Source of the DNA: an uncultured Bacteroidota bacterium
Lineage (GTDB): Bacteria > Bacteroidota > Bacteroidia > Flavobacteriales_F > PHOS-HE28
NCBI GenBank assembly: GCA_902826215.1
Contig: CADEDY010000016.1
Location: 3,109-67,108, forward strand
Direction: 5' to 3'
DNA: 64,000 nucleotides
Under the pieces are notes generated by a model that saw nothing but the letters and a program-made list of their open reading frames with translations, did no database searches and had not been told where the DNA came from. The position numbers and the translations under genes are program-made. Positions within the stretch are counted from its first letter, which is position 1; every line of letters starts with the position of its first letter. Shown one piece after another: positions 5,983 through 33,014 of this stretch.

Positions 5983-6139
5983 TTGCGTGGCGCTGATCTT
6001 CAGAACCTTCTGCTCGATCAACAGCGCTATCGGTGATCCGATCCACGAACGGCTGTGTATGTCGCACTTCAGGAACGAACTTTGTGCCGTACGCAGCTGT
6101 GCCTCCAACGCGTTGAGGTGTAGTAGACGTTGAACTCGC

Positions 6140-7063: not shown

Positions 7064-7164
7064 TTGTGAAACACGTGCAACGGCTTCGGCGTGCTAGTGG
7101 AGAACAGAGCATGGAACACGATAACCGGCCTTGGAAGACCCACTAGCACAGTTCGATATTCGAA

Positions 7165-8310: not shown

Positions 8311-8401
8311 GCCGAGTGGGATCGAACGGTCCGACCCGTAGCGTGTACGGAGCATCACAATAGCAGGCCACGGCTGCCGTTGTGCCAACTCAACCACCTT
8401 C

Positions 8402-10449: not shown

Positions 10450-12633
10450 CTACTCCTTCACGAAAGATGCGTACTCCCAACCACCATCGGAACTTCGCAC
10501 CCCGAAATGGTAGACCCCGGCCGGAAACCGCTCAACGTCCAAGTCCAAACGACGGACAGACCCTTTCCATCCATGAACGACCCTGCCATCGATCGTGGTG
10601 ATGCGTGACTCAATGATGAATGTGTTGTTCGGCAGTTCGATGAACACTCGGTTCTTGGCGGGGTTCGGGTAGAGCATTGGGCTTGATCCGATCCGCTCTG
10701 TGATGTCGGTACTGAACTCTGCCACCAGCACGCTGGGCTCGGTGATCACCGGTGGGTTGAAGTCGAAGTAGATGTTGGTGATATTCTGGATCGCCGTACC
10801 AGCCGAAAGCGGCTGTTTTGGGCGGATGCGGAAACTGATGAGGCCATGGCTCATCGGCTCGTTCACATTGCTATCCGGGAGCAGGATGTTGGGGAAGATG
10901 AACTTCAAAGTGCCTTGACCCTGCACACTCCAGATATGGGCATGTGAGGCGCTCACCAACGAGATCGAAGCTGGGTCAAGCGTGGCCGGAAGCGTGTCCG
11001 TGACAACAATGGTGAAAGCCGTGTCCGTTCCCGTATTCTGGTAGCGGATCACATAGTCGATCCACTCATCCTGATCGATGAAGTAGAGTTCATTACTACC
11101 ACGGGTGCTGGTGTAGGCGGTCTTGTCGTTGGGATCAAAACTGCCGGTGACGGTGATCGACGCTGATGCGGTGTTGTTGCTCACGTCCCCATCCGTGTTC
11201 GCGACAGCAATTGTGGCACTTGCCAGCAGTTCAGTACCGATGAGGCCAACATCGGGCGGCACCTGCAGTTGGATCTGGTAGTCGCGGTCCTGGAAAAGGT
11301 CGAGCGCGGATCCGTTCCACGTGATGGTGTTACCGCTGACCGTGCTGGGTGTCGGGGTCGCGCTGATGTAGCTCAACGTTGGATCGAATGTGAGCGTGGT
11401 CGTTGTGGCCCCACTTGAGGAGGAGGATAGATTCTCCACATGCACCGTATGGTGCACTTGGAAACCGGGCCGCGCTGGGCCCGACGCCAGGCTGATGGCA
11501 ACATCCAAGGGGATCGTGGCCTGATGCCCGATATTGGCTATGGTATTGGCGCCGTTCACCGTAGCGCCTGCCGGACAGCTCTGCGCAATGGCCGCAACGC
11601 TGGTGGTCAGTGTGTAACTGCCGTTCGGCACCACCACGGAATAGCCTCCGTTGGATGTGGTATAGATCGGCCCCGGTTGTATCTCCACCACCACGTTCGT
11701 GGCGTTTGCTTCGGTATCGATACAGTCGCTGTTGTAGTCCATGTACGTGCTTCCGGAAATACTGCCGCATGTGGGCCCGAGATCGGGGATCGTCACGAGG
11801 ATGCTATCGGTCGTACATCCCCCTCCCTGAAGCAATGAGTATGTAAGAGCAAGGCGATACAAAAGCCAGTAGTTCCCCGGCTCCAAATAGCCGAATGCGT
11901 ATACGTCCGGAGCGACGGTCTCCAAGTTGGTCTCCCACCCTTCGTACTCTGTGCTCCCCTCTGGCTTCAGGATATAGTACATATCCCCCATCGTCGTGGG
12001 CGTGGTGACGAAGGTGACCTTGCCGGTCCCTTGGCTGGTGCAGGAGCCTTGCACATCCACCACGGTGAAGCTGGGCCACACGGTAATGGGGTAACCGGCC
12101 GTGAAGTTCAAGGTGCCAGAGCATCCGTTCACATCCCAAAAGGTCACCGATTGACTGCTGCCGGGAGCAATGGACCCAGGATCCAGATACCAGTTGTTCG
12201 GACCGGCCGGTGGTGGCACTTGGGCAATGATCCCCAGCGAGGAACTCCAGGGGCTCACGTCGACGGGTATTCCATGTGGCCCTGGAGGAAAGAAGAACTC
12301 GTGATAGTTCTGTCCAGGGCAATATGGGTGGGGATAGTTGTAGTCAAGTGTACCGTAATCCGCGCTGATCACCGTGGCCTGTTCCGTGACCTGCGTGCCA
12401 ACGAAGTCGGTGACAGTGACACTGTACGTGCCCGAGCCCAGGTTGCTTATCCCTTCCGTGGTCTCACCACCGCCCCAGAGGTAGGTGTAGGGTGGTACTC
12501 CACCGGATACCGCCGCGTAAACAGATCCGTCCGCATACGAGCATGTCTCGTTCTGCACCTGCAAGTCCACTGTCAGCGCCCATGCTGTCGTTGATACGAA
12601 GAGGTGCGCGCAACCAAATAGTGCTCTTTTCAT
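10450..12633 (-). CDS. T9SS type-A sorting-domain protein with N-terminal SprB repeat (array paralog 1)
   Basis: Signal peptide. SprB-type repeat CSYADGSVYAAVSGGVPPYTYLWGGG...GTYSVTVTD. CG-ISG...DC SdrD-B/Cna-B-like module. GSFDPNDK, WIDYVIRYQNTGTDTAF, ILLPDSNVNEP and FDFNPPVITEPSVLVAEFST motifs. C-terminal LYPNPAKNRVFIEL...YHFGV tail typical of Por_Secre_tail. Confidence 0.85.
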   Translation of the reverse strand: MKRALFGCAHLFVSTTAWALTVDLQVQNETCSYADGSVYAAVSGGVPPYTYLWGGGETTEGISNLGSGTYSVTVTDFVGTQVTEQATVISADYGTLDYNYPHPYCPGQNYHEFFFPPGPHGIPVDVSPWSSSLGIIAQVPPPAGPNNWYLDPGSIAPGSSQSVTFWDVNGCSGTLNFTAGYPITVWPSFTVVDVQGSCTSQGTGKVTFVTTPTTMGDMYYILKPEGSTEYEGWETNLETVAPDVYAFGYLEPGNYWLLYRLALTYSLLQGGGCTTDSILVTIPDLGPTCGSISGSTYMDYNSDCIDTEANATNVVVEIQPGPIYTTSNGGYSVVVPNGSYTLTTSVAAIAQSCPAGATVNGANTIANIGHQATIPLDVAISLASGPARPGFQVHHTVHVENLSSSSSGATTTTLTFDPTLSYISATPTPSTVSGNTITWNGSALDLFQDRDYQIQLQVPPDVGLIGTELLASATIAVANTDGDVSNNTASASITVTGSFDPNDKTAYTSTRGSNELYFIDQDEWIDYVIRYQNTGTDTAFTIVVTDTLPATLDPASISLVSASHAHIWSVQGQGTLKFIFPNILLPDSNVNEPMSHGLISFRIRPKQPLSAGTAIQNITNIYFDFNPPVITEPSVLVAEFSTDITERIGSSPMLYPNPAKNRVFIELPNNTFIIESRITTIDGRVVHGWKGSVRRLDLDVERFPAGVYHFGVRSSDGGWEYASFVKE

Positions 12634-12639
12634 GGTGTG

Positions 12640-14907
12640 TCAGTTCTTGATGAAGCGCTCGCGTGCGGTTGTTCCATTGGTCAGGTCCGCGATAAGCAGG
12701 TAGGCTCCGCTCATCAGGTTGTTCACATCCACCCTAGCGCTGCTCGTGCGCAGGTTCGAACGAAGGACCTCCCGTCCATCCGCAGCAACGATCCTTATCG
12801 AAATGATCCCCGTATTGGAGGTCACAGTCAAAAGATCGGTAGCCGGATTCGGCAGCAGGTTCAACTGTCGTGGAGATGTCGTCGAACCTTGACCGATCGA
12901 AGTACTGAACTCCGCCACCAGCACGCTCGGCTCCGTGATCACTGGCGGGTTGAAGTCGAAGAAGATGTTGGCGATGTTGGAGATCTCATCGCCCGGCAAC
13001 AAGGGCAGACGCGGACGGATGCGGAAGCCCACGAAACCGTGACTGCGTGGCTCATTGATGTTGCTGTCCGGAAGCTGGATGTTCGGGAAGTAGAACTTCA
13101 GGGTGCCGGAATCACGCAGTTCCCAGGAGAACGTGTGCGAAGCCGCACCCATGACGATGCTTCCAGGATCCAGGTTCGCCGGCAATGTGTCGGTGATCAC
13201 CACGTTGAAGGCGGTGTCCGTACCTGTGTTCTGGAAGCGGATGGTGTAGTCGATCCACTCGTCGGCACCGAGGAGCCACGCGTTGGTGTTGCCGGTGCTG
13301 GTGGTAGCTAGCTTGTCATTGGGGTCGTAGGCGCCGGTAATGGTGCGCTGCAACAGGTAACTATTGTTGGGAAGGTCAGCATCGGTATTGCTGGTGCTCA
13401 CCGTGGCCGTGGTGAGCAAGTCCGTTCCGAGCAGGCCCACGTCAGGTGGCACTTGGAAACGTAGTTGGACGGTGCGCGATTGAAAAGCGTTGGTGAAAGA
13501 AAAGTCTGCACCCGTCCAGGTGAGTACGTTGCCGGCCGTGGTGGTGGGCGCCGGTGTGGCGAAAACCAACCCCAGCAGCGCATCATGCTCCAACATCAGC
13601 GATACCGTGCCCGCAGCATCGGCGGTCAGGTTGTTCACCTGCACAGCTACCTGATACTCGAATCCAGGCCGCGCCGCACCATCGCTCATCGTCACCTGCA
13701 TATCCAGTTGCGCGCCCACCTCCATGGGCACATGCACATTGTTGTTCACGGCTTGCTGCACCACCTGCACCACCGGGCACGATTGCTCCAGCACGGGGTG
13801 CTCGGCGAAGACCTCGTAGGTACCATAAGGCACCTGCACGCTGTACTGGCCGCTGCTGTTGGTGTTGCCGAAATAGGGACCGGGCTCCAACCGCACCACC
13901 GTGGCCGGCACGTTGTTCTCGCTGGTGTTCGTCGCGCAGTTGGAGTTATTATCCATGAACACGCGACCGCTCACCACACCACAATCGCCGGGCAATGCGG
14001 GCACCAACACTTGGATGGAATCGCGGCACTGGTAGTCGTACCAGTCCGTGAAATCGAAGTTGAAGGTCTGCCCGGAGACATGCACCCAGTAGTTCCCCGG
14101 CGCAAGACCGGTGAAGGTGTAGGGTGTACCGATGAAACCTGCGGGTTCGATCCCGGTCTGGGAACAACCGCCCGCTACGACCTCCCCCGCGCTGTTCTTC
14201 AGCCGGGTCACCACCTGCGGATAGAGCCCAAAACCGCCAAAGGACATGGTGATGCTACCGCTCGCCCCGTTGCTGCACGAACCCGCTACATCCACCACTT
14301 GCATCACAGGGAGCGTCTCCGGGCCATTGAGGCCGACCCAGGCATCCAGGATACAGCCGTTCTGATCCTCGAACTGCAGTGGATAGGAACCGTAGCCCGG
14401 GAACATCAGGGCCCGATAGGTGAACTGCCCGCACTCATCCAGTTGCTGCGAGGAGTCGATCACATCGGGACCCCAGATGTCCACGATCCCGTTCTCGAAC
14501 ATGTTCACCACGGCGATGGGTGGCTCACCGGGACATGTGGCGATCGCTTGTATGGCCAGGTTGACCGCACCATCGATGACCACCTCGATCGGACCGGTAC
14601 TGGCCATGTCCATCTGGGAATCGACCACGGTGAGGGAATAAACACCAGGATAAAGACCCTCCAGTGCCAGGTTGGCGACCGACGAACTGCTTTCTTGGAA
14701 CACCTCACCCCCGGCATCATACCAGGTCACGGTGAACGGGGGCAGGCCGCCCACCACATCCACGTAGATGGAACCATCCGGTCCACCACAAAGGGACGGC
14801 CCCACAGCAGCCACAAAGAGCTCGATGGCGTGGAGTGGCGCCATACCGAGCAAGATGCCCACCAGTGCGGTCGACGCGCGCAGCCAGTATGTATCGATGG
14901 ATGTCAT
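12640..14907 (-). CDS. T9SS type-A sorting-domain protein with N-terminal SprB repeat (array paralog 2). Start trimmed to ATG 14907; the ORF track extends to 14949.
   Basis: Same architecture as paralog 1. MTSIDTYWLRASTALVGILLG is signal-like. C-terminal LLPNPATDLLTV...GAYLLIADL CTD. Confidence 0.8.
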   Translation of the reverse strand: MTSIDTYWLRASTALVGILLGMAPLHAIELFVAAVGPSLCGGPDGSIYVDVVGGLPPFTVTWYDAGGEVFQESSSSVANLALEGLYPGVYSLTVVDSQMDMASTGPIEVVIDGAVNLAIQAIATCPGEPPIAVVNMFENGIVDIWGPDVIDSSQQLDECGQFTYRALMFPGYGSYPLQFEDQNGCILDAWVGLNGPETLPVMQVVDVAGSCSNGASGSITMSFGGFGLYPQVVTRLKNSAGEVVAGGCSQTGIEPAGFIGTPYTFTGLAPGNYWVHVSGQTFNFDFTDWYDYQCRDSIQVLVPALPGDCGVVSGRVFMDNNSNCATNTSENNVPATVVRLEPGPYFGNTNSSGQYSVQVPYGTYEVFAEHPVLEQSCPVVQVVQQAVNNNVHVPMEVGAQLDMQVTMSDGAARPGFEYQVAVQVNNLTADAAGTVSLMLEHDALLGLVFATPAPTTTAGNVLTWTGADFSFTNAFQSRTVQLRFQVPPDVGLLGTDLLTTATVSTSNTDADLPNNSYLLQRTITGAYDPNDKLATTSTGNTNAWLLGADEWIDYTIRFQNTGTDTAFNVVITDTLPANLDPGSIVMGAASHTFSWELRDSGTLKFYFPNIQLPDSNINEPRSHGFVGFRIRPRLPLLPGDEISNIANIFFDFNPPVITEPSVLVAEFSTSIGQGSTTSPRQLNLLPNPATDLLTVTSNTGIISIRIVAADGREVLRSNLRTSSARVDVNNLMSGAYLLIADLTNGTTARERFIKN

Positions 14908-14945
14908 TGTCCTATGTTCTGTTCGTTGGTCCTGCATTCGGTCGC

Positions 14946-17171
14946 TCATCGTTTCACGAAGCGCACTGTGCTGCGGCTCCCATCGTCGGTCAGAAGCTCC
15001 AGCATATAGACCCCGGTGGACAAGGCCTCCACGTTAATTGTCGCACTGGTGCCCGGCATGCGCTGTTCCAACATCGATCGGCCATCAATACCCCGAACGA
15101 TCAACATGCCTGTGTGCAGGTCATCGCCACTCCTTCGAACCATGAGCCAACCTTCGGTCGGGTTCGGCGTCACCAGCAGTTGTGCAAGGCTCTCCGGTTC
15201 CTCCACACCCGTACTGAACTCCGCCACCAACACGCTCGGCTCCGTGATCACCGGCGGATTGAAGTCGAAGAAGATGTTGGCGATGTTCTCGATGCTCGTT
15301 GTTGCAGCAAGTGGAAGTCGTGGCTTGATTCGGAAGGAGACAAAGCCATGGCTAAGAGGCTCGTTCACGTTGCTATCCGGCAGTTGGATGTTGTAGAAGG
15401 CCCAGCGCAACACGTTGCCATCGCGAATGGATAGCGCATGCGCATGTGATGATGCACCTGCTTGGAAGGTGCCCAGATCGAGCTCCGTTGGGATGGTGTC
15501 GGTCACCACGATGTTGAATGCGGTGTCGCTGCCCGTATTCTGGAATCGTATGGTGTAGTCGATCCATTCATCCACATCCATATAGTACAGGTCGTTGCTT
15601 GAGCCACTGCTCGTGCGTGCCGTCTTGTCGTTCGGATCGTAGCTGCCGGTCACCGTGGTGGTGAGTGCGGCGGCATTGTTCGCAGGTACCGCATCGACAT
15701 TGCCTGTGGTGAGGCTCGCGTTGAAGACCAGGTCCGTCCCGAGCAGGTTGATGTCCGGCGGAACCTGTAACTGCACATGCACTGTTCGTTCTTGGAAGGA
15801 ACTGAATGCAGCGATGTTCCACGTGAGCGTATTGCCGGACACGTTCGGTGCCGGGAAGGCGGAAACGAAGGAGAGCACCGGGTCGAAGGTGATGGTGAGC
15901 GTGCTGGCTCCGGTGCTGGACAAGGTGTTGTTCGCCACTCGAGCTGTGAGGGCCATTTGGAACCCGGGCCGTGCAGCACCGCTCGCTAGCGATACGCTGG
16001 CATCCATCGGCACGAGTGCGGTATCGGCCACATTCACCGTTTGGAACGGAACACCCGAAGACAAGGTGAACGGTGCGGGTGCTGAAATGCAATGATCCTC
16101 CAGAACGGCACTCTGCTGTTGTATGGTGTAAGAGCCCAATGGCAGGTTGATGCCGTACAGACCACCGCCGGTGATCGTATAGATCGGGCCGGGGAGTATC
16201 TCAAGCACCACACCGCTAGCTCCGGGCTCGTTGCCTTGCCGAACGCAGTCCTCGTTGTCGTCCATGAACACGGTGCCACTGATGTTGCCGCAACCGGGGC
16301 CGAGGTCCGGTATGGTGAAGGGAGTGCTCACCCGGCACCCGCTGCTCGCCAAGAATGTGCTCTCGCTCATGAATTGGATGAGCAGGTAGTCTCCGGGCGG
16401 CAGAGCGTATGAGTTCGTGCTCACCGCGTTCCCTGCTCCGAAGGAGGTGATGTACTGGTTGTTGATGGTTTCGATCTTCACTTGGGTGAACTGGCTGTGG
16501 CCTTCAAGCCCCGTTTGGAAGGTGATGGACCCGTTGTTACCACCGGAGCATGCACCTTGTATCTCCAGGATGGTCAGGTCGGGCCATTCGATCGGGTAAC
16601 CGATGTATTCGTTCAAGGTGCCCGTACATCCGGCGCCGTCGCTGAACGTGTAAGTCTGCCAACCACCGAACTGTGGTGCGGGCCAACTGGCGGCATAGAA
16701 GGTATCGACCGGGAAGAGCCACTCGTAATAGATGGTCTCTTGCATGGTCTGTCCGTTCACGGTGTAGGGCAACGGACCCATATACTGACCTAAACCCGTG
16801 TTCCCATTCCCCGGTCCGTCCAGCAGCACATCCGTGAACGTGTTGCACAGTCCGGTCGTCCCGCCGTCGGCGATGTCCGAGAGCGCGTAGGGTTGACCTG
16901 AAAGAACGATCTCACCTGTCGCCTGATCATTGTTGAAGTCGGTCACTGTCACCGAATAGGTACCCGGTGGTAGATCGGAAACAACAGCGGTGGTGGCTCC
17001 GGTGCTCCACAAATAGGCATACGGGCCCACACCACCAGTGGCATTGGCTTGGATGTTGCCGCTGGGATAATTGCACGTTGGGTATCGGTTCACCCAAATG
17101 TTGACCGTTACGGCTTGTGCTGCGATATGCACAGCGAAAAGTAGGGGCAGAAGGATGCTTCTCATGGTCAT
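14946..17171 (-). CDS. T9SS type-A sorting-domain protein with N-terminal SprB repeat (array paralog 3)
   Basis: Same architecture, 741 aa. Its start overlaps the paralog 4 stop (ATGA). Confidence 0.85.
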   Translation of the reverse strand: MTMRSILLPLLFAVHIAAQAVTVNIWVNRYPTCNYPSGNIQANATGGVGPYAYLWSTGATTAVVSDLPPGTYSVTVTDFNNDQATGEIVLSGQPYALSDIADGGTTGLCNTFTDVLLDGPGNGNTGLGQYMGPLPYTVNGQTMQETIYYEWLFPVDTFYAASWPAPQFGGWQTYTFSDGAGCTGTLNEYIGYPIEWPDLTILEIQGACSGGNNGSITFQTGLEGHSQFTQVKIETINNQYITSFGAGNAVSTNSYALPPGDYLLIQFMSESTFLASSGCRVSTPFTIPDLGPGCGNISGTVFMDDNEDCVRQGNEPGASGVVLEILPGPIYTITGGGLYGINLPLGSYTIQQQSAVLEDHCISAPAPFTLSSGVPFQTVNVADTALVPMDASVSLASGAARPGFQMALTARVANNTLSSTGASTLTITFDPVLSFVSAFPAPNVSGNTLTWNIAAFSSFQERTVHVQLQVPPDINLLGTDLVFNASLTTGNVDAVPANNAAALTTTVTGSYDPNDKTARTSSGSSNDLYYMDVDEWIDYTIRFQNTGSDTAFNIVVTDTIPTELDLGTFQAGASSHAHALSIRDGNVLRWAFYNIQLPDSNVNEPLSHGFVSFRIKPRLPLAATTSIENIANIFFDFNPPVITEPSVLVAEFSTGVEEPESLAQLLVTPNPTEGWLMVRRSGDDLHTGMLIVRGIDGRSMLEQRMPGTSATINVEALSTGVYMLELLTDDGSRSTVRFVKR

Positions 17172-19453: not shown

Positions 19454-19457
19454 CCGC

Positions 19458-23884: not shown

Positions 23885-26136
23885 CGTGTCGTGTGGTTGA
23901 GCATGGAGTGGTGAAGCGTCCCATCCGTGAAGGTCGCTTGCAGCAGGTAACTCCCTGCGGCCAGGGATGCGATATCGAGCTTGGTCGTTCTTCCGCTCAC
24001 CGGTGTGCGCAGTACTTCTCGTCCATGGAGGTCAAGAAGCCTAAGGTGTTTGATCATGCCTTGGATCGATCTCACCTCCACATCATCAAAAGCCGGGTTG
24101 GGGAATACGAGCAACGGTTGCTGCTCCAGCGCTCGCACCCCCGTACTGAACTCCGCCACCAGCACGCTCGGCTCGGTGATCACCGGTGGGTTGAAGTCGA
24201 AGTAGATGGCCGCCTCGTTGCTGATCTCCGTTCCAGGAAGCAGGCTGCTCACCGGGCGTATGCGGAAAGTGATCACCCCATGGCTGGCCGCCTCGTTCGT
24301 TCCGCTATCCGGTAACAGAATATTGTCGAAATGCCACTCCACCTTGCGACCGGGCATCAAGTTCAAGGTGAAGGGATGTGAACCCGGACCTTGCTCGAAA
24401 GTGCCCATATCCAGTTCCGCCGGAAGCACGTCACGCACGACCACGGTGAACGCGGTGTCCGTGCCTGTATTCTGGAAACGGATCGTGTAGTCGATCCATT
24501 CGTCCGTGTCCAATAAGTAGAGGCTTTCACTTGATCGGCTGCTGGTGAGTGCAGTCTTGTCATTGGGGTCATAGCTGCCCGTTATGGTGCCCCAACTAAC
24601 AGCGGTGTTGTTGGCAAGATCGATCTCTGCGATCGGTTGCGAGATAGAGAACGAATGCGAGAACGGTTGCCCGATCAGGAGCACATCAGCAGGTACTTGC
24701 ACTTGAATGTGCAAGTTGGTCCGTCCGAAATCCGGAACAGCAGGAAGCCCGATCCATGAGACCACGTTACCAGTCACACTCGTTGGCGTAGGTGTGGCAT
24801 CGATGTAACTCATTTGCGGGTCGAAGGTCAACGTGGCATCCATGAGGCCAGCGGCCATGCCCGACGGCTTCTCCACGAGGGCCCATAAGTTCTGGACGAA
24901 TCCCGGGCGTGCAGCGTTGGAGTAGAGTTCCGCTTCAAGGTCCAACGGGATCAAACTGCTATCCGCCACGTTCACCATCTGGTTCACGCCACTGACGGTC
25001 ACCGGTATTGGTTGCACCGGCGGACAAACCGGGTAAAGATCGGATCCTGTTCCCGACACGTTCATGGTGTAACTGCCATTCGCCAGGTAGCACCCATAGG
25101 TCCCGCTGGGGTTGGCCACGGCGTAGTACGGGCCAGGCAGGAACTCGATCAGCCGGAAGCCAAGGCCGGAATCACCGGGATCCTGTGCGCAATCCTGATC
25201 GTGGTCCAGAAATAGGGATCCGCTCACGAGCGCGCATTGACCGAGCAGATCCGGCACTTCCACGTACATGGAATCCACGCAGAAGAGCGGATACAGGGGA
25301 TCGTTCGGTTCGGTGCCGAGCTGGTCCGGATCGGTGATGACCCAATACGCACCAGCAGCAAGGTTGGGGAAGGTGAATGTCGAGTTGTTCGATACCAGTC
25401 GGCTCCCATATGTTCCAGCAAGATTTGGAGGGATCTGTCCATCCAGCGTGCGCACATTCACGCGGAAAGCCTGGTTGGCGTCAGCCCCACTAACAGCCAT
25501 GTTGATGCGGCCGTTGCTACCACCGCAGGCACCTTGTACACTCACGATCGAAACATTCGGTTCCACCCATTCCGTGGAGAACTGAAGCGTGGTAGAACCA
25601 GGGCACCCAGCAGCATCGGTCCAGTTGATCGTGTTGTATGTACCCGGTGTTACATCCATCCACACACCGATGTAGCTATATAGGAAAGCGTTGAAATGAT
25701 CACTGAAATTCCCGAAGAGGATCGCCGGAGATGTTACGTTGTGCGGCTCCGGTCCATTGTGCGGATCCTCCAAGTGCAAGTAGGTGTATGGATAATCGCC
25801 CGGACAATGGACCAAGCCACCGAAACCTGGGACATTTACCTCTTGGTGCGAAGTCGTGACCAGTATCTCACCACTTCCCGTTGCCATATCGCCGATGCCA
25901 TCAGTGACGGTCACGGTATACATTCCTGCAGAAAGGAATTCGATGTACTCCGTGGTGGCGCCATTGCTCCATTGAATGGTATACGGCGGCGTCCCACCCA
26001 TCACCACGGCGTTCAACGTCCCCAGCGCTTGTCCGCAAGCCGCATCGGAATATTTCTCGACGACCACTGTAACGGCTGCACATTCCGTGGCTAGGAATAA
26101 GGACATCAGAGCGGTAAGGGCAGTTGCACGGATCAT
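23881..26136 (-). CDS. T9SS type-A sorting-domain protein with N-terminal SprB repeat (array paralog 7)
   Basis: Same architecture, 751 aa. ATGA overlap with paralog 6. Confidence 0.85.
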   Translation of the reverse strand: MIRATALTALMSLFLATECAAVTVVVEKYSDAACGQALGTLNAVVMGGTPPYTIQWSNGATTEYIEFLSAGMYTVTVTDGIGDMATGSGEILVTTSHQEVNVPGFGGLVHCPGDYPYTYLHLEDPHNGPEPHNVTSPAILFGNFSDHFNAFLYSYIGVWMDVTPGTYNTINWTDAAGCPGSTTLQFSTEWVEPNVSIVSVQGACGGSNGRINMAVSGADANQAFRVNVRTLDGQIPPNLAGTYGSRLVSNNSTFTFPNLAAGAYWVITDPDQLGTEPNDPLYPLFCVDSMYVEVPDLLGQCALVSGSLFLDHDQDCAQDPGDSGLGFRLIEFLPGPYYAVANPSGTYGCYLANGSYTMNVSGTGSDLYPVCPPVQPIPVTVSGVNQMVNVADSSLIPLDLEAELYSNAARPGFVQNLWALVEKPSGMAAGLMDATLTFDPQMSYIDATPTPTSVTGNVVSWIGLPAVPDFGRTNLHIQVQVPADVLLIGQPFSHSFSISQPIAEIDLANNTAVSWGTITGSYDPNDKTALTSSRSSESLYLLDTDEWIDYTIRFQNTGTDTAFTVVVRDVLPAELDMGTFEQGPGSHPFTLNLMPGRKVEWHFDNILLPDSGTNEAASHGVITFRIRPVSSLLPGTEISNEAAIYFDFNPPVITEPSVLVAEFSTGVRALEQQPLLVFPNPAFDDVEVRSIQGMIKHLRLLDLHGREVLRTPVSGRTTKLDIASLAAGSYLLQATFTDGTLHHSMLNHTTR

Positions 26137-28355
26137 GGGTGAGTGGTTTTGACGAAGGTGGTGGTAAGCGTTCGATCGGTGGATAGGAGGCGCAACAAAT
26201 AGGTTCCAGAAGCCAACGAACTGATGTCAACGGTCGGGTGGTCGGCGCTCACGTTCCCGGTGGACACCATGCGCCCATCCAAAGCAAGAATGACCCACTG
26301 CGAATTCGCCAAGACGCCCTTCTTGAAAATTCGGATGTGATCGCTAGCCGGGTTCGGGACCAAACTCAATTGGCTTTGGTCCTGCTGTTGCATCCCCGTA
26401 CTGAACTCCGCCACCAGCACGCTCGGATCGGTGATCACAGGGTCATTGAAGTCGAAGTAGATGTTGGCGGTATTCTCGATCACCGTGCCTGCAAGCAATG
26501 GCTGCACAGGCTTGATCCTGAACTTCACGAAGCCCTGACTTCCGGCAAGGTCCGTCGTGCTGTCCGGAAGGTTGATGGCATCGAACAACCACTCCACCAC
26601 GCGACCGGGTTTGAAGGTGTAGGTGTGTGCATGCGAAGCCAAGGCCATCTGGAACGTTGTCATGTCCAGTTCCTCTGGCAACGTGTCGGTAACGGTGACG
26701 AAGAAGGCCTCGGCCGTTCCGGTGTTCTGGAAGCGGATGGTGTAGTCGATCCACTCGTCCTCGTCGATGTAGTACAGAACATCGCTCTGCTGCGAGCTGG
26801 TCGTTGCGGTCTTGTCGTTGGGGTCGTAGCTGCCCGATACCACTCTTGTCTCGCTATCCGTGTTGTTCGCCAGGTAGGTGTCGGTGTTCGCGCTGGAAAC
26901 ACTGATGCTGTGGCTGAGCATGGTGCCCAGCGGCGTGCCGACTGGCACAGTGGTATAGATGACGAAGCCTTGCGAGCTGAAGTAGTCCAATTCAGCGATC
27001 TGCCAGGTGAACACGTTTCCGGTGATCGTAGTTGGTGTTGGCGAAACACTCCCGATGACTACTGTTGGGTCGATGGTGACGATCACCTCCACGGCTCCCG
27101 TGGCCTGCACCGTGTTGTTGGCCGCACCGCCAGAGATCCTGTGCGAGAAACCCGGCCGTGCCCATGTGGAGTTGATGTTCGCGCGCAGATCGAGCGATGC
27201 TGTGCTGTTGTTGGCGAAGTCAATGTTGGCGATGGGCCCGTTCACCGTGAAGGGCACCGGTTGCGTGACCGGGCAATAGGGAACGAGCGTTGGGTTGGTC
27301 TGTGCAATGGTGTAATTGCCCGCTGCCAGATTGAAACTGAAGTGCCCATTGCCTCCCGATATCGCGTACTGCGTTCCGGGCTGGATCACCATCACGCTTC
27401 CCGGCACGCCCATCTCGCCACCATCCCACACGCAGTCGCCGTCCTGATCGAACCACGCATTGCCTTCAACCTGCGTGCAGCCGGGGCCGAGATCGGGCAC
27501 TTCGAAGTTGTCATTGAACATGCACTGGCCGAGCATGGGATAGGCGTTCAGCGTGTAGATCCCCGCCGCCAATCCATCGTAGGTCGCGGTTGAGAACTCG
27601 AACAAAGTCGTATCCGGCACTACGATGTTCCCGATGCCATCGGTGACGGAGTACCTTACCGGATAGCCCGTTTGCAACGAAACGCTCCCGATCTCCGAGC
27701 CGACGCATGCACCTTCCATATCGGTTACAGTAGGCATCTGGGTTTCGTCGATCGTCGATACGGTGAAAATGCTGGAACCCTGGCAGCCCAGCGCATCCGT
27801 GATGGTATAGGTCACGAGATCGCCGCCACAGAAACCGGAGTAGTAAGGGAAGCCATAAGTATCCAAGCCCTCATAGTTCGCAGCCACACTGAAATCAACA
27901 GTGAACGGTGGCGTGCCGCCCAAGGAGACCATGGGCATGCCGACCATGCCATTGCATAGGCCGCCACATGCGCCGCCAGCGAATCCGGTGATGTCGTAGA
28001 ACGAAACGTAGCTCGGATAGTAATTGATGTTCCCATCAAAGGGCAAGGCGCTGAAGCTCTCCACGGTCGCGTTCGCGCTGTATGGGGTGCCCACCGCATC
28101 AGTGATCGTAACGGAGTAGCTGCCTCCCGGCACACCGGTCACCGTCTCCGTGGTGGCACCATTGCTCCACAAATAGGTGTATGGCGGGACGGACCCGCTT
28201 CCACTGATGTACGCGTACATCTCACCGTTGGAATTGCCGCAGGTCTCGGGCTTCCCCACATTGATGTATGCCGTGGCAGCATTCGAGACGAACGCGAAGC
28301 AGATAGCGGCCATGGCGGCGGCGCTTCGGGTCCGTTGCAAGTTCATGATCCTCAT
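26133..28355 (-). CDS. T9SS type-A sorting-domain protein with N-terminal SprB repeat (array paralog 8)
   Basis: Same architecture, 740 aa. ATGA overlap with paralog 7. Confidence 0.85.
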   Translation of the reverse strand: MRIMNLQRTRSAAAMAAICFAFVSNAATAYINVGKPETCGNSNGEMYAYISGSGSVPPYTYLWSNGATTETVTGVPGGSYSVTITDAVGTPYSANATVESFSALPFDGNINYYPSYVSFYDITGFAGGACGGLCNGMVGMPMVSLGGTPPFTVDFSVAANYEGLDTYGFPYYSGFCGGDLVTYTITDALGCQGSSIFTVSTIDETQMPTVTDMEGACVGSEIGSVSLQTGYPVRYSVTDGIGNIVVPDTTLFEFSTATYDGLAAGIYTLNAYPMLGQCMFNDNFEVPDLGPGCTQVEGNAWFDQDGDCVWDGGEMGVPGSVMVIQPGTQYAISGGNGHFSFNLAAGNYTIAQTNPTLVPYCPVTQPVPFTVNGPIANIDFANNSTASLDLRANINSTWARPGFSHRISGGAANNTVQATGAVEVIVTIDPTVVIGSVSPTPTTITGNVFTWQIAELDYFSSQGFVIYTTVPVGTPLGTMLSHSISVSSANTDTYLANNTDSETRVVSGSYDPNDKTATTSSQQSDVLYYIDEDEWIDYTIRFQNTGTAEAFFVTVTDTLPEELDMTTFQMALASHAHTYTFKPGRVVEWLFDAINLPDSTTDLAGSQGFVKFRIKPVQPLLAGTVIENTANIYFDFNDPVITDPSVLVAEFSTGMQQQDQSQLSLVPNPASDHIRIFKKGVLANSQWVILALDGRMVSTGNVSADHPTVDISSLASGTYLLRLLSTDRTLTTTFVKTTHP

Positions 28356-30598
28356 TGTTTGATGAAGCGCTCGCGCGCCGTGTTTCCATTCTCCAGTTCA
28401 GCGATGAGCAGGTAGGCCCCGCTCTTCAAACCGTTCAGGTCGATGCGTAGTTGTGTTGATCGAGTGCTCATGCGCATCACCTCACGGCCATCGGCGGCCA
28501 GGATCCACACGTTCGACATTGCATCGCCACTGGTCATGATCAACTCATCGCTCGCAGGCACCGGTGCCAAGGAGATCGCACTGCTCCGCTGCTGTGCCAC
28601 CCCCGTACTGAACTCCGCCACCAGCACGCTCGGCGTTGTGATCACAGGCGGATTGAAGTCGAAGTAGATGTTGGCGACATTCTCGATCACGGTGCCGGGC
28701 GCGATCGGCTGGTGCGGCTTGATCCGGAATTGCACCAGTCCGTGCGACGCGGCCTCGTTCACATTACTGTCCGGCAACTGGATGTTGTTGAAGATGTAGC
28801 GCAGGACACCTTGCCCGCCCATTTGGGTGATACAGCTATGCGAGCGTGGACCTAGCTCGAAGGTCGCGGGATCCAATGACGGGGGAAGCGTGTCGGTGAT
28901 CACCACGTTGAAGGCCGTGTCCGTTCCCGTGTTCTGGAAGCGGATGGTGTAGTCGATCCACTCGTCCTCATCGATGAAGTATAGTGCGTCGCTCAACTGA
29001 CTGCTGGTGGTGGCCAGCTTGTCGTTGGGGTCGTAACTGCCGGTCACGGTGCGCAAATGCACCGCGCTGTTGTTGGTCAGGTTCGTTTCGGGCTGCGCGA
29101 TGCTCGCCGTGGCGCTGTGCATGAGTTCGTTGCCGATCAAGGCCGGGTTGGACGGCACCAGCAGGTTCACGTTGATGTGCCGATTGCCGAATGAGGTGAG
29201 CTGCGCGAGCGTCCAGGTGAGGGTGTTGCCGTTCACCACGGGCGTCGGGCTGGCACTGGTGAAAGTGAGCGTCGGATCGAAGGTGCAGGACACGGTGAGC
29301 GTGCCGGTTCCGCCGAGCGTCTCATGATGAACGTGCAAGACCAGCTGATGATTGAAGCCAGGGCGTGCCGGACCTGAACCGATGAACAGCTCAATGTCAC
29401 GCGGCACCAATACCGTATCGCCCATGTTCTGCGTCACGGATTGCCCGTTGCTTCCAAGGTTGAATGGGATCGGCCCGCCGATGCAATGCTCATCGAGCAC
29501 GGCTGAAGCTTGCTCGACCGTGTAGGACCCGGTGGGCAGGTTGACCTGGTAGTATCCATTGGCGCCGGACATGGCCGTGTAGCCGCCCGGTTCGATCAGC
29601 ATCACCTCGTTCGGCACGCGCGTCTCGAGGCCGGCCATGATGCAATCCTGGTTATCGTCCATATGGACCGTGCCCTTCAGCGTGCCACAGGGTCCCGGCA
29701 TCTCAGGCACGGTGAACCACACGGTGTCCGTGCAGAAATCCTCAGATACAAAGAAGTACCCTTCAAGCCATTCATACGCGGAGTCCTCGAATCTCGGCGA
29801 CGATACCAGCGCGTATCCGCCCGGTGCGAGGTCCTGCCGGAGGATGGTGTGCGGGATCTGGCCGAACATCTGGCCGACCGTGGACTGAGTCTGGAGATCA
29901 CCTGCGTCCGCACCATCGCGAATGAGCCGCAACAGGTAGGGATCATCGTTGGGTGATCCGTCCACTTGGACCAAGGCGCTCCCGTTGTACCCGGCAGCAC
30001 ACGCCTCATCCACCATCAGCACTTGCCGTTGAGGGTGCGCAGGCGGCTGCGGCACCTGCCCGTAGATCGTTCCCGGACAACCATTGGCATCGGTGAAAGC
30101 GATGGAGAGCGAGGTGCCAGCAGGAGGCCAGATATCGAAGTTGCCCACATATAAGGCGGAGTAGCCATTCGGACCATTGATCACATCGGAGACATAATTC
30201 CCCGATAGGGTCAATGGAGGAACTCCCGTATTGTAAATGCCAGCCTGTCCGAGCATCCGGAATGGAGGGCCGAGCATTTGGTCAGGGCAGCCCACCATTC
30301 CGTCCACATACGCTTCGAGGGGAAAGGGCGAGAGCGTGAAATCAGCAGTGGCCTGTTCCAGATTGGCGTCGGTCACTGTGACACTGTAGGTGCCCGCTAC
30401 CAGATCGTTCAGCCAAGAGTCCGTTGAGCCCGTGCTCCAGGAACAGGTGTACGGCTCCGTCCCGCCTTGTGGCTGCGCGTAGATCGACCCGGTCGGGTAG
30501 GTGCAGAATGCCGGTATGTACATCTGTATGCTCACCGTGACGGAAAGCGCGGGTGAACTGATCAGCGCGCAGAAGACGAATGCGTTGAGGTGTTTCAT
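28352..30598 (-). CDS. T9SS type-A sorting-domain protein with N-terminal SprB repeat (array paralog 9)
   Basis: Same architecture, 748 aa. ATGA overlap with paralog 8. Confidence 0.85.
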   Translation of the reverse strand: MKHLNAFVFCALISSPALSVTVSIQMYIPAFCTYPTGSIYAQPQGGTEPYTCSWSTGSTDSWLNDLVAGTYSVTVTDANLEQATADFTLSPFPLEAYVDGMVGCPDQMLGPPFRMLGQAGIYNTGVPPLTLSGNYVSDVINGPNGYSALYVGNFDIWPPAGTSLSIAFTDANGCPGTIYGQVPQPPAHPQRQVLMVDEACAAGYNGSALVQVDGSPNDDPYLLRLIRDGADAGDLQTQSTVGQMFGQIPHTILRQDLAPGGYALVSSPRFEDSAYEWLEGYFFVSEDFCTDTVWFTVPEMPGPCGTLKGTVHMDDNQDCIMAGLETRVPNEVMLIEPGGYTAMSGANGYYQVNLPTGSYTVEQASAVLDEHCIGGPIPFNLGSNGQSVTQNMGDTVLVPRDIELFIGSGPARPGFNHQLVLHVHHETLGGTGTLTVSCTFDPTLTFTSASPTPVVNGNTLTWTLAQLTSFGNRHINVNLLVPSNPALIGNELMHSATASIAQPETNLTNNSAVHLRTVTGSYDPNDKLATTSSQLSDALYFIDEDEWIDYTIRFQNTGTDTAFNVVITDTLPPSLDPATFELGPRSHSCITQMGGQGVLRYIFNNIQLPDSNVNEAASHGLVQFRIKPHQPIAPGTVIENVANIYFDFNPPVITTPSVLVAEFSTGVAQQRSSAISLAPVPASDELIMTSGDAMSNVWILAADGREVMRMSTRSTQLRIDLNGLKSGAYLLIAELENGNTARERFIKQ

Positions 30599-30606
30599 GG
30601 CGGCGG

Positions 30607-32853
30607 TTATTCGTGCTCGATGAGGAATGGATGGTACAACTGGTTGCCTTCAGTGTCCATGACCCGGAGGAGGTAGGCGCCCGAAGGAAGCCCTTGCAGA
30701 CCCACCAAGGCGCGGTGTCCTTGTATCGGCTCTTCGCGGACCATGCGCCCATCCAAGGTCAGGATCGACAGCCGCATCAGCAGTGTGGTCGAATGAACGT
30801 TCAATTGCTCTCGCGTCGGAACCGGGAAGACATGTAGTTGATCAGGGCTCTCCACTCCCACCCCGGTGCTGAACTCCGCGACTAGCACACTCGGCTCGGT
30901 GATCACCGGCGGGTTGAAGTCGAAGAAGATGTTGGCGATGTTCTCGATCAGCGTACCGGGTAGAATGGGTTGATGCGGCTTGATGCTGAAGTTCACGAAA
31001 CCGTGGCTGCGTGGCTCGTTGGCGTTGATGTCCGGAAGCAGGATATTGGCGAACATGAACCGCAACACGTTGTCGCGCATCAGCATGGTCATGGGGTGCG
31101 ATGCCGCGCCGAGCTGGAAGGTGGCCGGGTCCAAGGTGGACTGGAGCGTATCGGTGATCACCACCGAAAAGGCCGTATCCGTACCGGTGTTCTGGAAGCG
31201 GATGGTGTACTCCAAGCGATCATCGACGTCTATCAGGTAGAGACCCTCGGCCCCACTTTCCGTGCGCACTGTCTTATCATTCGGATCATAGGAGCCGGTC
31301 ACTATCACGGTATGCGCCACCGTGTTGTTGGAGAGTTCAGTTTCGGCACCCGCAACACTTACCGTCGCCGAACCCGATAGAACTTGGCCGAGCAAGGAGA
31401 TATCCGGTGGCACTTGGAATTGCGCGTAGAAGTCACGGTCTGCAAAGGCCCCCATGCTGCTCAAGTTCCACGTGATCACATTGCCGCTGACGTTCGTGGG
31501 GGTGGTCCCGATGTTGAGATACACCAGCGCTGGATCGAAGGTGAAAGTGACCGTACCAGCACCACTGAGCACACCGGTCAGGTTGTCCACATCGATGCCA
31601 TAGCCGATCTCGAAACCAGGCCGAGCTGCACCACTTTCCATGCTGATCCGAACATCAAGCCCGGTGAGGCTCGTGTCGGCCAAATTCCGTGTCACGTTCG
31701 TTTGCCCGGTGGAAACGGTGAATGCCGTGCCTTCAACGCCGCAGTGCTCTTGGAACAGGGCATTCTGGTCCGCCACGGTGTACGACCCGTATGGGAGGTT
31801 CATGGTGTACTGGCCGCTGGAATTGGTAATGGCGAAATGGTCGCCGGGTTGCACCTCCACCACCGTATTCGGCAGGTTCGCATCGGTGCTGCCATAGCTG
31901 CAGTTCTCGTTCGCGTCCACGAAGACCTTACCGCTCAACGTTCCACATGGATAGCCCAGATCGGGCACCTCGATCACGAGGGTATCGCGGCACAGGTCAT
32001 CGATGCCCGTGTAAACGTTATCCAATAGACCTTGCAAGCCTTCCCAGTAGATCGTCTGTACCACGTGATAGGTCCCGTTAGGCAATCCTGAGGCTTCGAG
32101 CGTCATGTTCGACAATCCTGTGGCGCTGCTCCCACTGGGCGAGGTCCATCCGAATTCCGAACCAGCGTCATTGAAGATCTTCATGGTGGAGGCCCAGCCG
32201 TTCGGTTCGGCCGGGATGAAAAGAGTGAACGCTCCATTGCTACCGCCACTACATGCACCGTTAACATCCAGTACTTGGGGCACCAACCATTGTGGGTTCG
32301 GCGGTGCTACACCCTGGGCCAAGGTCTGGCAGCCATTGGCATCGGTAATGGTGAAATTGAATGCCTGGCCCGGCTGGTAGGGATCGGCACCCACATAGAT
32401 GAACTGCATGCCTTGGTCTTGTACGGTGTTCATTGCACCCCACTCCGTCGAAGTGAACGGCGCCATACCCACTGCGGAAGGCCAACCGCTGAGAAGCAGA
32501 CGCCTGCCCGGCTCGCCGGATTCTCCCCCATCCGGGCAACCCGGAAGCCATAGGATGTCCGGTCCATACAAGGGTTGGGAAGTAAGGGTGATCTGATCGG
32601 TGGCTTGCGCACCCATGAAGTCGGTCACCGTGACCGAATACGTCCCGGGCAGGAGTTGCTGGATCTGGGGTTCAGTGGATCCCGTGCTCCACAGATAGGT
32701 ATATGGACCAACGCCGCCGGCGGCGTTAGCGCTGAGGGCTCCGTAGGCGTATACACAAAGCGGAAACTCCTGGACCACGATGTCCACGGTCACTGCGTGC
32801 GCTAATGTGCCAAATCCACACAGCGGCAGGACAAGGAATAACACACTTTTCAT
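30607..32853 (-). CDS. T9SS type-A sorting-domain protein with N-terminal SprB repeat (array paralog 10, promoter-proximal)
   Basis: Same architecture, 748 aa. First gene of the array relative to the divergent intergenic region 32854-33014. Confidence 0.85.
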   Translation of the reverse strand: MKSVLFLVLPLCGFGTLAHAVTVDIVVQEFPLCVYAYGALSANAAGGVGPYTYLWSTGSTEPQIQQLLPGTYSVTVTDFMGAQATDQITLTSQPLYGPDILWLPGCPDGGESGEPGRRLLLSGWPSAVGMAPFTSTEWGAMNTVQDQGMQFIYVGADPYQPGQAFNFTITDANGCQTLAQGVAPPNPQWLVPQVLDVNGACSGGSNGAFTLFIPAEPNGWASTMKIFNDAGSEFGWTSPSGSSATGLSNMTLEASGLPNGTYHVVQTIYWEGLQGLLDNVYTGIDDLCRDTLVIEVPDLGYPCGTLSGKVFVDANENCSYGSTDANLPNTVVEVQPGDHFAITNSSGQYTMNLPYGSYTVADQNALFQEHCGVEGTAFTVSTGQTNVTRNLADTSLTGLDVRISMESGAARPGFEIGYGIDVDNLTGVLSGAGTVTFTFDPALVYLNIGTTPTNVSGNVITWNLSSMGAFADRDFYAQFQVPPDISLLGQVLSGSATVSVAGAETELSNNTVAHTVIVTGSYDPNDKTVRTESGAEGLYLIDVDDRLEYTIRFQNTGTDTAFSVVITDTLQSTLDPATFQLGAASHPMTMLMRDNVLRFMFANILLPDINANEPRSHGFVNFSIKPHQPILPGTLIENIANIFFDFNPPVITEPSVLVAEFSTGVGVESPDQLHVFPVPTREQLNVHSTTLLMRLSILTLDGRMVREEPIQGHRALVGLQGLPSGAYLLRVMDTEGNQLYHPFLIEHE

Positions 32854-33014
32854 GGAAAGGCGGTTAGGTGACGTCTTGACGAACAGACGAGTAGACCGAA
32901 AAGGGATGCCTGAAACTAACTGAATATCCGCGAACTACCGGTTGTTCACGACCCGTTACCTTTGCGGCGGCTTGCTCCGGGTCATCACCCATTTTCGCGT
33001 GAGTACATGGCCAC
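32854..33014. promoter_or_regulatory. Divergent intergenic region, candidate promoter for the 10-gene array (minus strand) and for mtaB (plus strand)
   Basis: This is the only sizeable non-coding gap bordering the array. A TAGTTTCA element (partial match to the Bacteroidota -7 TAnnTTTG motif) lies on the minus strand about 57 nt upstream of the paralog 10 ATG. I verified no -33 element. Confidence 0.3.

Follow-up and report, generated by a model that had tools for sequence, protein, structure and literature searches.

The window analysed here, a 64,000-nucleotide (nt) stretch of contig CADEDY010000016.1 from an uncultured Bacteroidota bacterium, contains ten consecutive minus-strand open reading frames (ORFs; 10450-32853 in the ORF list), numbered g10 (first gene) to g1 (last gene). 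They encode paralogous proteins with a common layout, consisting of a signal peptide, domains D1 to D4, D5 (CLIPPER/DUF11), D6 (DUF7619) and a type IX secretion system (T9SS) C-terminal sorting domain (CTD) of type A. Comparison with related loci fetched from public assemblies and GTDB species representatives (given L numbers below) shows that the protein body is inherited with the CTD of the upstream gene and not with its own CTD. The array is probably best explained as a co-expressed repertoire of adhesin-like proteins anchored to lipopolysaccharide (LPS), which would evolve by the shuffling of cassettes at the DUF7619/CTD boundary.

Cassettes offset from gene boundaries

For these comparisons, proteins were split at the end of ...AEFST(G), and bodies and CTDs were matched separately. 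Between orthologs, the CTDs are 22-35% identical, compared with 85-95% for the remainder of the protein. Among cross-genome pairs with a body identity of at least 85%, the protein's own CTD is common to one of ten, and the upstream CTD matches (68-95%) in five of the six pairs where it can be assessed. The g7 body (93%) comes after a g8 CTD (83-85%) in both L010 and L005; the body carrying that CTD is of g2 type in L010 and g3-like in L005. In L002, the g3 body (90%) comes after a g4 CTD (68%) that belongs to an unrelated body. Likewise, the g10 CTD (79-86%) is carried by a gene remnant in L011 and by a g1-type body in L086, the g9 body (90-92%) following in each; L086 also has the g9 CTD (90%) on a foreign body, with the g8 body next. 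The unit of inheritance would be a cassette comprising the CTD of one gene (n-1), the junction, and the signal peptide and body of the next (n).

The positions of the breakpoints agree with this organization. Nine nucleotide homology blocks link the relatives to the window at a minimum of 78% identity over 250 nt or more. Each starts within the DUF7619 of the preceding gene and terminates at the DUF7619/CTD boundary of a window gene, 242-262 nt ahead of its stop codon. The end point is the downstream edge of a 66-nt segment encoding I[YF]FDFNPPVITEPSVLVAEFST (IFFDFNPPVITEPSVLVAEFST in g10), referred to here as the crossover segment (Table 1). Three chimeric genes change parent 300-390 nt before the stop codon, where the parents are 87-93% identical. 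The near-identical locus L085 follows the window at 76-100% identity (mostly above 90%) from 17230 to about 12955 and drops to about 50% by about 12910, beyond which it has another CTD and a g8-like gene in place of g1. In L086, one foreign cassette splits g9 exactly where its body meets its CTD, and L010 has the cassette order g3 CTD + g2, g8 CTD + g7, g9 CTD + g8, compared with g10 through g1 in the window. No breakpoint was found inside a core (the variable central region of a protein), all mapped breakpoints lying at the DUF7619/CTD boundary.

Body/CTD mosaics and permuted orders of this kind might also arise as metagenome assembly artefacts, through mis-joins at the conserved segment. The breakpoints do fall on the most repeat-like sequence of the genes, where mis-joins are expected, and the comparison genomes are mostly metagenome bins, with L085, L002 and L011 represented by short-read contigs, which counts against the cassette interpretation. 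However, the exact matches that paralogs share are at most 69 nt long (median 23 nt), well under the k=141 suggested by the 'k141_' contig names of the short-read assemblies. The junctions g8 CTD/g7 body, g10 CTD/g9 body and g9 CTD/g8 body recur independently in the window and in L005, L010 and L086, large contigs of 286 kb, 439 kb and 3.66 Mb, respectively, the first two of which bear 'tig' names typical of long-read assemblers. Moreover, linked cassette parts are similar in synonymous divergence (dS), unlike neighbouring cassettes. Given the short exact matches and the long contigs, mis-assembly is a most improbable source of the mosaics.

The crossover segment also stands out at the DNA level. 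Of 45 paralog pairs, 28 have their longest exact match 277-348 nt ahead of the stop codon, within the stretch that encodes NIANIYFDFNPPVITEPSVLVAEFSTG, and 12 have it in DEWIDYTIRFQNTG. Within the 22-codon motif, the same codon is used at 75% of shared positions versus 48% expected, compared with 52% versus 43% in the remaining DUF7619. A tract of about 300 nt common to g2 and g4, with 87% identity and a proportion of synonymous differences (pS) of 0.10, ends at the crossover motif, all else in the two genes being saturated; it looks like gene conversion within the array. The last 66 nt of DUF7619 thus appear, from codon identity, to carry a signal of repeated recombination besides protein constraint.

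Homologous recombination, presumably of the RecA type, would act at this end of DUF7619, where the 66-nt segment is the longest stretch of near-identity between paralogs, and cassettes would be deleted, inserted, reordered and apparently transferred between species. Because a crossover at this point lies just upstream of the discarded CTD, each recombinant would encode intact mature proteins, which would explain why only these breakpoints are seen. A more far-reaching and somewhat unlikely possibility is an integrase-free form of cassette exchange inside coding sequence, in which the 66-nt end is kept near-identical as a DNA docking site and not only by protein constraint. If so, a site just before a disposable export tag would render every crossover functionally silent, and whole tip-plus-stalk cassettes could be cut out, put back and handed from one species to another, forming a common pool of surface specificities. 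This would represent a general route for the diversification of T9SS cargo families and a natural demonstration of freely interchangeable type-A CTDs. A scan of 20 flanking ORFs (small ORFs were not exhaustively covered) revealed neither an integrase or recombinase domain nor an attC-like site; the junctions are 4-nt overlaps or gaps of 4-8 nt.

Several relatives show other events at their C-termini or incomplete copies. Longer members of about 900-970 aa (P0057; L009:2832-5747 and 5797-8619; L008:8851-11694; L087:14423-17134) have the type-A CTD replaced by a C-terminal region of about 250 aa without a Pfam or NCBIfam match. In P0057 this region carries two dockerin/EF-hand-like DxNxDGxxKYxGxNNDRDxIL motifs, and the switch occurs directly after ...ITEPSVLV, the same junction as in the CTD swaps. 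A 3' stump of a g10-type gene lies beside mtaB in L011 (6511-7155), one gene is split into two ORFs in L007 (8135-10292), and L010 (7795-16587) contains several fragments; these copies are either real pseudogenes or assembly frameshift errors.

Paralog age, selection and exchange between lineages

The initial annotation regarded the array as a local amplification of genes with hypervariable cores and as a diversifying family. Neither a recent amplification nor hypervariable cores are supported by comparison within and between genomes. Overall identity among paralogs is 29-43%. Sliding windows give a mean pairwise identity of 0.40-0.45 for D1, 0.24-0.29 for an island at D3 and 0.22 where D3 meets D4, falling to 0.09-0.18 in the most variable core stretches; it is about 0.35 across D4-D5, 0.5-0.84 in DUF7619 and only 0.23-0.31 in the CTD. 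Synonymous sites are saturated (pS of about 0.7), and outside DUF7619 the same codon is used for shared amino acids at a frequency of 0.39, compared with 0.38 expected from codon usage. The paralogs are therefore old duplicates. In DUF7619, pS is 0.61 and the proportion of nonsynonymous differences (pN) is 0.29. Homogenisation was accordingly rejected as the cause of its overall conservation for most of the domain, where conservation appears to reflect purifying selection; it was kept as an explanation for the final 66 nt and the g2-g4 tract.

A search with the g3 protein returned hundreds of proteins sharing its architecture, with identities graded as 97, 81, 76, 70 ... % and almost all of them encoded in uncultured "Flavobacteriales bacterium" bins, and the GTDB species-representative genomes yielded 587 confirmed matching stretches, mainly in uncultured Flavobacteriales and other Bacteroidota. 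Several isolate names among the matches resemble those of wastewater-plant surveys, a likeness of name only. The window genes are 51-97% identical to genes in other genomes, the best counterparts reaching 93% for g7, 90-92% for g9, 90-97% for g3, 85-90% for g2, 80% for g1, 72% for g10 and 70-75% for g8, while no close ortholog of g6 was present among the loci fetched. For most window genes, the counterpart in another genome is much closer than any paralog in the window. Ortholog cores are 86-94% identical, with region-by-region Nei-Gojobori dN/dS ratios (nonsynonymous to synonymous divergence) of 0.07-0.28 in the segments designated "variable" and 0.02-0.2 elsewhere. The cores are thus paralog-specific but conserved, under purifying selection.

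These values make it very unlikely that the array is a diversifying or antigenic-variation family, in which cores under positive selection would be swapped between paralogs for new surface variants. It is true that the cores are nearly unalignable between paralogs, that array content differs even from L085, whose g3 is 97% identical, and that the sole dN/dS above 1, in the segment var2 of g3 against this ortholog, is 1.1, resting on a handful of substitutions. However, low dN/dS and high identity among ortholog cores, saturated synonymous sites among paralogs and the lack of any core breakpoint all argue against it. Recombination between paralogs, which the initial annotation had presumed, does occur, but its crossovers at the DUF7619/CTD boundary move whole cassettes rather than exchanging cores. 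In addition, every one of the ten genes is complete, with a start codon, a signal peptide and a CTD of its own, and there are no silent cassettes. Inverted repeats flanking the region upstream of g10 amount to a 10-nt chance match, with no sign of an invertible promoter, and phase variation by promoter inversion was rejected on this ground.

Cassette shuffling is accompanied by wide variation in copy number among relatives. At loci flanked by mtaB, there is one intact gene plus a g10 remnant in L011, at least four copies in L001, four in L008, five to six in L007, at least seven in L086 and ten in the window, and L009 has three copies between mtaB and traB. L002 has five family genes in an array ending at traB, L005 has at least nine, and the complete 3.9-Mb genome L087 has seven family genes in a different genomic context.

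Cassettes and flanks are also unequally diverged. When the window is compared with L086, the g10 CTD has a dS of 0.10, the g9 body 0.32, the g9 CTD 0.12 and the g8 body 0.99, against 1.07-1.33 for mtaB, lgt and inositol monophosphatase; synonymous divergence of some cassettes is thus 4-10 times below that of adjacent housekeeping genes. L011, L002, L005 and L010 are also dS mosaics, and each time the linked CTD and downstream body have similar values. A further sign of differing cassette and flank histories comes from L002, whose TraB/GumN-family gene (L002:14058-14996) is 47.5% identical to that of the window (9359-10249) with saturated dS, whereas the g3 cassette is 90% identical with a dS of 0.6. 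Most simply, cassettes would differ in age within a single genome pair, which suggests exchange between lineages or species. Low cassette dS could instead reflect codon-usage constraint in highly expressed genes, which would weaken the case for exchange, but this is unlikely because other cassettes of the same genome pair have dS values of 1-2. The array does occupy a chromosomal, syntenic locus between conserved housekeeping genes (TraB/GumN and MtaB-like), as the initial annotation held; its contrast of local expansion with a mobile island fits less well with cassettes that are far less diverged than the flanks and that suggest lateral exchange.

Protein architecture and the proposed surface arrangement

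The proteins range from 724 to 769 aa, slightly beyond the upper bound of 762 aa first proposed. An AlphaFold2 model of g3, built with 110 homologs, is all-beta and multi-domain with a predicted local distance difference test (pLDDT) score of 91.3, and its secondary-structure string was used to define domain bounds that were then mapped onto all ten genes: signal peptide 1-20, D1 21-92, D2 93-194, D3 195-290, D4 291-386, D5 CLIPPER 387-508, D6 DUF7619 509-656, and linker plus CTD 657-741. By a heuristic check, all ten N-termini have a basic n-region, a hydrophobic 10-mer scoring 2.0-2.7 within the first 30 residues and an AxA-like site, in agreement with the signal peptides originally assigned. 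The type-A sorting domain likewise stands, as the NCBIfam model TIGR04183 scores 24.8-44.1 bits in all ten proteins (cut-off 23); Pfam PF18962 (Por_Secre_tail) exceeds 27 bits in eight and reaches 26.0 in g5 and 24.5 in g9. DUF7619 (PF24595) is matched in all ten at 135.3-149.2 bits (cut-off 27) over profile positions 1-128 of 133. DUF11 (PF01345) scores 27-48 bits in all ten (cut-off 24.6), and TIGR01451 also exceeds its cut-off in each; the best PF01345 stretch is D5 in g1, g4, g5 and g6 and elsewhere overlaps the related DUF7619, and D5 is clear as a CLIPPER domain in the relative P0057 (67 bits).

At the N-terminal end, the SprB model PF13573 (gathering score 28) is exceeded in g1 (30.8 bits) and g5 (33.3 bits), with seven others at 18-27 bits and no match in g4. 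In a HMMER scan of 1.84 billion representative proteins, D1 of g3 (residues ~20-110) matches, with about 40% identity, repeat units that occur as 20-89 tandem copies in proteins 2,000-7,400 aa long, which identifies it, as far as homology searches can tell, as a genuine SprB-type unit. Profile-profile comparison (hhalign) relates D3 to D1 with a probability of 88.6% and an E-value of 2.6e-6, so D3 would be a degenerate SprB-like module inside the "unalignable" core; D2 may be another degenerate copy (profile-profile probability 65%). Given these relationships, the tip would consist of three SprB-type beta-sandwiches and not of a single grafted repeat, as had been supposed. Similarly, the core of about 200 aa described as unalignable merits that term in its most variable stretches but encloses the D3 island, at 27% identity.

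D4 is a Cys-bearing CnaB/transthyretin-like module, in which three cysteines are conserved in all ten proteins; eight cysteine columns are conserved in at least nine of the ten paralogs. Its assignment as an SdrD_B/Cna_B module was rejected, all Pfam matches being below threshold: SdrD_B (PF17210) reaches 18-25 bits against a cut-off of 29.7, in three of ten proteins only, and CarboxypepD_reg 21-26 bits against 32.3. Of the C-terminal block reported as strongly conserved, the quoted motifs are present and DUF7619 fits the description, whereas the CTD itself does not. The general picture of a compact-stalk T9SS cargo with a variable tip and a conserved membrane-proximal block is borne out by Pfam and NCBIfam matches in all ten proteins.

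DUF11 was renamed CLIPPER in a 2025 survey (Costa et al., Protein Sci 2025), one domain having been solved with a Lys-Asn isopeptide bond (9IFR; PMC12617251), and DUF7619 is a related CnaA-like family with a predicted Lys/Asp/Asn triad that is common in Gram-negative surface proteins (PMC12617251). In the array, K516 (the K of GSYDPNDK), D558 (VVITDT) and N629 (ENIANI; g3 numbering) are invariant in the ten paralogs and 110 aligned homologs, with a spacing of +42 and +113 compared with +38 and +107 in the reference protein L7WFS8 (PMC12617251). An isopeptide bond between Lys516 and Asn629, catalysed by Asp558, may therefore lock DUF7619. In D5, the first strand has the pattern (P/S/G)xD(x6-7)S(G/N/T)xxR(P/V)GF with Lys in none of the ten proteins, so D5 probably lacks such a bond, as do some DUF11 domains (PMC12617251).

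In known type-A cargo, the CTD directs T9SS transport, PorU cleavage is largely sequence-independent, and the new C-terminus is joined to anionic LPS (PMC4560394, PMC4804311, PMC9143113). The array proteins would similarly be delivered to the periplasm by the Sec pathway and moved over the outer membrane by the T9SS through recognition of the type-A CTD, which would then be cut off, the new C-terminus being linked to anionic LPS by analogy with Porphyromonas. The mature protein would end close to ...AEFST(G). From the membrane outwards, the stalk would consist of DUF7619 (predicted to be isopeptide-locked), CLIPPER and the Cys-bearing CnaB/transthyretin-like domain, presenting an N-terminal tip, D1-D3, whose middle sandwich is paralog-specific but conserved among orthologs. 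Ten genes would thereby provide ten different fixed putative binding tips at once, and not alternates of one variable antigen.

Alternatively, the ten proteins could be subunits of one composite coat or fibril, with DUF7619 serving as a shared assembly interface rather than as part of independent adhesins. Tight, operon-like packing suggests stoichiometric co-expression, DUF7619 is conserved far beyond the other stalk domains, and fold matches include filament or coat proteins built of immunoglobulin (Ig) strings: in a Foldseek search of the full-length g3 model against the PDB, the top match was the Aureispira grappling-hook protein GhpA, and an S-layer protein was also among the matches. These matches are generic strings of Ig-like domains with TM-scores of 0.09-0.15 and offer no functional lead. 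Moreover, a copy number ranging from 1-3 to at least ten and a permuted gene order among relatives are ill-suited to a fixed assembly, and the type-A CTD of each protein implies individual anchoring. A composite structure is therefore considered unlikely. A PDB sequence search with the CLIPPER and DUF7619 region of g3 gave nothing significant (best E 0.63), and D2 modelled alone gave a poor model matching generic beta-sandwiches, including some carbohydrate-binding modules.

Several points weigh against the interpretation of the array as a co-expressed set of LPS-anchored adhesins. Its probable co-transcription is deduced from gene spacing, and the sole terminator-like site downstream of g1 is weak. 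The 64-kb window encodes no component of the T9SS machinery. Adhesion is suggested by protein architecture, and the isopeptide bond is a prediction.

The C-terminal half alone (D4, CLIPPER, DUF7619 and CTD) occurs with other N-terminal regions in L032, L037, L043, L044, L046 and L075, from Flavobacteriales, Bacteroidota, Chitinophagaceae and Cytophagales bins, and stalk-plus-tag genes also form tandem arrays of 2-4 in distant Bacteroidota. This scaffold seems to be widely reused.

Genomic setting and relation to known systems

As originally described, the ten genes are separated by almost no intergenic DNA: six of the nine junctions are 4-nt overlaps, and the remaining three are gaps of 4, 6 and 8 nt (Table 1). 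The likely start of g4 is the ATG at 19453, although the ORF list extends the gene to a GTG at 19534. A scan of the 3' end of the array for sigma-70 promoters and terminators returned counts no higher than those of shuffled sequence; the promoter consensus is not applicable to Bacteroidota. Array G+C is about 0.58, the same as in the flanks, which encode TraB/GumN, DUF4349, an EEP-family nuclease/phosphatase, two rhomboids and MutL downstream, and an MtaB-like radical-SAM enzyme, Lgt, inositol monophosphatase and an acyltransferase upstream. No additional family members were found in the window outside the array. In L001, a small DUF4907 gene (4810-5304) separates mtaB from the first array gene; the window lacks it, the interval there being only 161 nt. 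About 13 kb from the array, 45654-48617 (+) encodes a possibly secreted 987-aa protein with 12 DUF5122 beta-propeller repeats (556 bits). Against about 0.58 elsewhere, G+C reaches 0.63-0.66 at 54-58 kb, where a BatA-like and an amidohydrolase gene lie, and then falls to 0.515 at 58-60 kb.

Table 1. Array genes, crossover segments and boundary features of the window
Feature	Coordinates	Strand	Remarks
g10, 748 aa, first gene	30607..32853	-	body ortholog (72%) adjoining mtaB in L001
g9, 748 aa	28352..30598	-	body orthologs (90-92%) in L011 and L086, always preceded by a g10-type CTD
g8, 740 aa	26133..28355	-	CTD at 83-85% on non-orthologous bodies in L005 and L010
g7, 751 aa	23881..26136	-	body (93%) in L005 and L010, both downstream of a g8-type CTD
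g6, 751 aa, most divergent paralog	21629..23884	-	profile matches as in other paralogs
g5, 724 aa	19458..21632	-	SprB match over Pfam gathering score
g4, 761 aa from ATG	17168..19453	-	L002 has this CTD (68%) on another body, upstream of its g3 ortholog
g3, 741 aa, exemplar	14946..17171	-	AlphaFold2 model; orthologs 97, 81, 70%
g2, 769 aa, long n-region	12640..14949	-	body (85-90%) in L010 and L085, with different CTDs there
g1, 727 aa, last gene	10450..12633	-	body (80%) in L086, there fused to a g10-type CTD
Crossover segment g10 (66 nt)	30865..30930	-	motif mapping
Crossover segment g9	28604..28669	-	L011 and L086 blocks end 245-253 nt before g9 stop
Crossover segment g8	26397..26462	-	L010 and L005 chimeras change parent here
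Crossover segment g7	24142..24207	-	blocks end 242-255 nt before g7 stop
Crossover segment g6	21884..21949	-	motif mapping
Crossover segment g5	19719..19784	-	motif mapping and homology-block ends
Crossover segment g4	17429..17494	-	L002 chimera
Crossover segment g3	15210..15275	-	L002 block ends 257 nt before g3 stop
Crossover segment g2	12901..12966	-	homology with near-identical relative L085 ceases here
Crossover segment g1	10708..10773	-	motif mapping
Putative gene-conversion tract, g2 side	12902..13201	-	87% nt identity to g4, including a 69-nt exact match
Putative gene-conversion tract, g4 side	17430..17729	-	partner of g2 tract
TraB/GumN-family gene, downstream boundary	9359..10249	-	same neighbour in L002 and L009
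MtaB-like radical-SAM gene, conserved upstream boundary	33015..34355	+	also adjoins L001, L007, L008, L009, L011 and L086 loci
Region of 161 nt from g10 to the divergent mtaB-like gene, putative promoter region of the array	32854..33014	-	no flanking inverted repeats

Surface adhesins often occur in tandem families. This one is uncharacterised but widespread, and its members are candidate attachment proteins for these organisms. No description of it was found in the literature searched, while Pfam models and generic NCBI names already cover it. Recombination in this T9SS cargo family is placed at the boundary between the mature protein and the cleaved tag, so that gene boundaries and units of inheritance are out of register. 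The natural CTD swaps imply that type-A CTDs are interchangeable among cargos, and low cassette dS points to surface specificities being exchanged among species.

Among described systems, the nearest analogue is the leucine-rich repeat (LRR) array (THC0290_0171-0186) of Flavobacterium psychrophilum, a member of the Flavobacteriia. It likewise consists of head-to-tail genes for paralogous surface proteins with TIGR04183 CTDs, whose secretion depends on the T9SS/gliding machinery (PMC5682007) and whose copy number varies among strains (PMC8400371). In that fish pathogen the binding module is an LRR, whereas the array of this uncultured Flavobacteriales lineage has SprB-type beta-sandwiches on an isopeptide-type stalk, and register-shifted CTD/body cassettes with a defined crossover segment are not described for the F. 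psychrophilum array in PMC5682007 or PMC8400371. With SprB, the gliding adhesin of F. johnsoniae, and other giant SprB-repeat proteins, the likeness lies in the D1 repeat unit. SprB has a type-B CTD (TIGR04131) with a PorP/SprF-like partner (PMC9143113, PMC12618676), whereas the array proteins have a type-A CTD (TIGR04183), are 724-769 aa long with one canonical and two diverged repeats instead of many, and neither flanking gene (TraB/GumN, MtaB-like) is of the PorP/SprF type. Given the small size, the type-A CTD and the lack of an SprF-type neighbour, they are not orthologs of SprB, and a role in gliding is not indicated. The fibrillar adhesins with CLIPPER and DUF7619 domains (PMC12617251) share the order of signal peptide, tip, CnaA/CnaB-like stalk and sorting domain. 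In comparison, the stalk here is very short, with three domains and the triad in one only, and a ten-gene array takes the place of one long tandem-repeat protein.

A Gram-positive parallel is provided by the sdrC-sdrD-sdrE locus of Staphylococcus aureus, whose paralogous genes lie in tandem and differ in presence between strains. Their products combine an N-terminal ligand-binding region that varies with conserved CnaB-type B repeats, and cleavage of a C-terminal sorting signal serves to anchor them covalently. That system involves three genes, compared with ten here, and sortase/LPXTG anchoring, and is not known to have cassettes offset from gene boundaries. Modular units with short conserved borders are also reassorted by recombination in pilE/pilS, vlsE and integron cassettes. 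Unlike pilE/pilS and vlsE, the array has no expression site with silent copies, each cassette forming a complete gene once joined to its neighbours, and unlike in integrons, the 'site' is a coding segment conserved for protein function. What appears to be new is the combination of out-of-register cassettes, a defined crossover segment at the boundary between mature protein and CTD, and evidence for unequal cassette ages.

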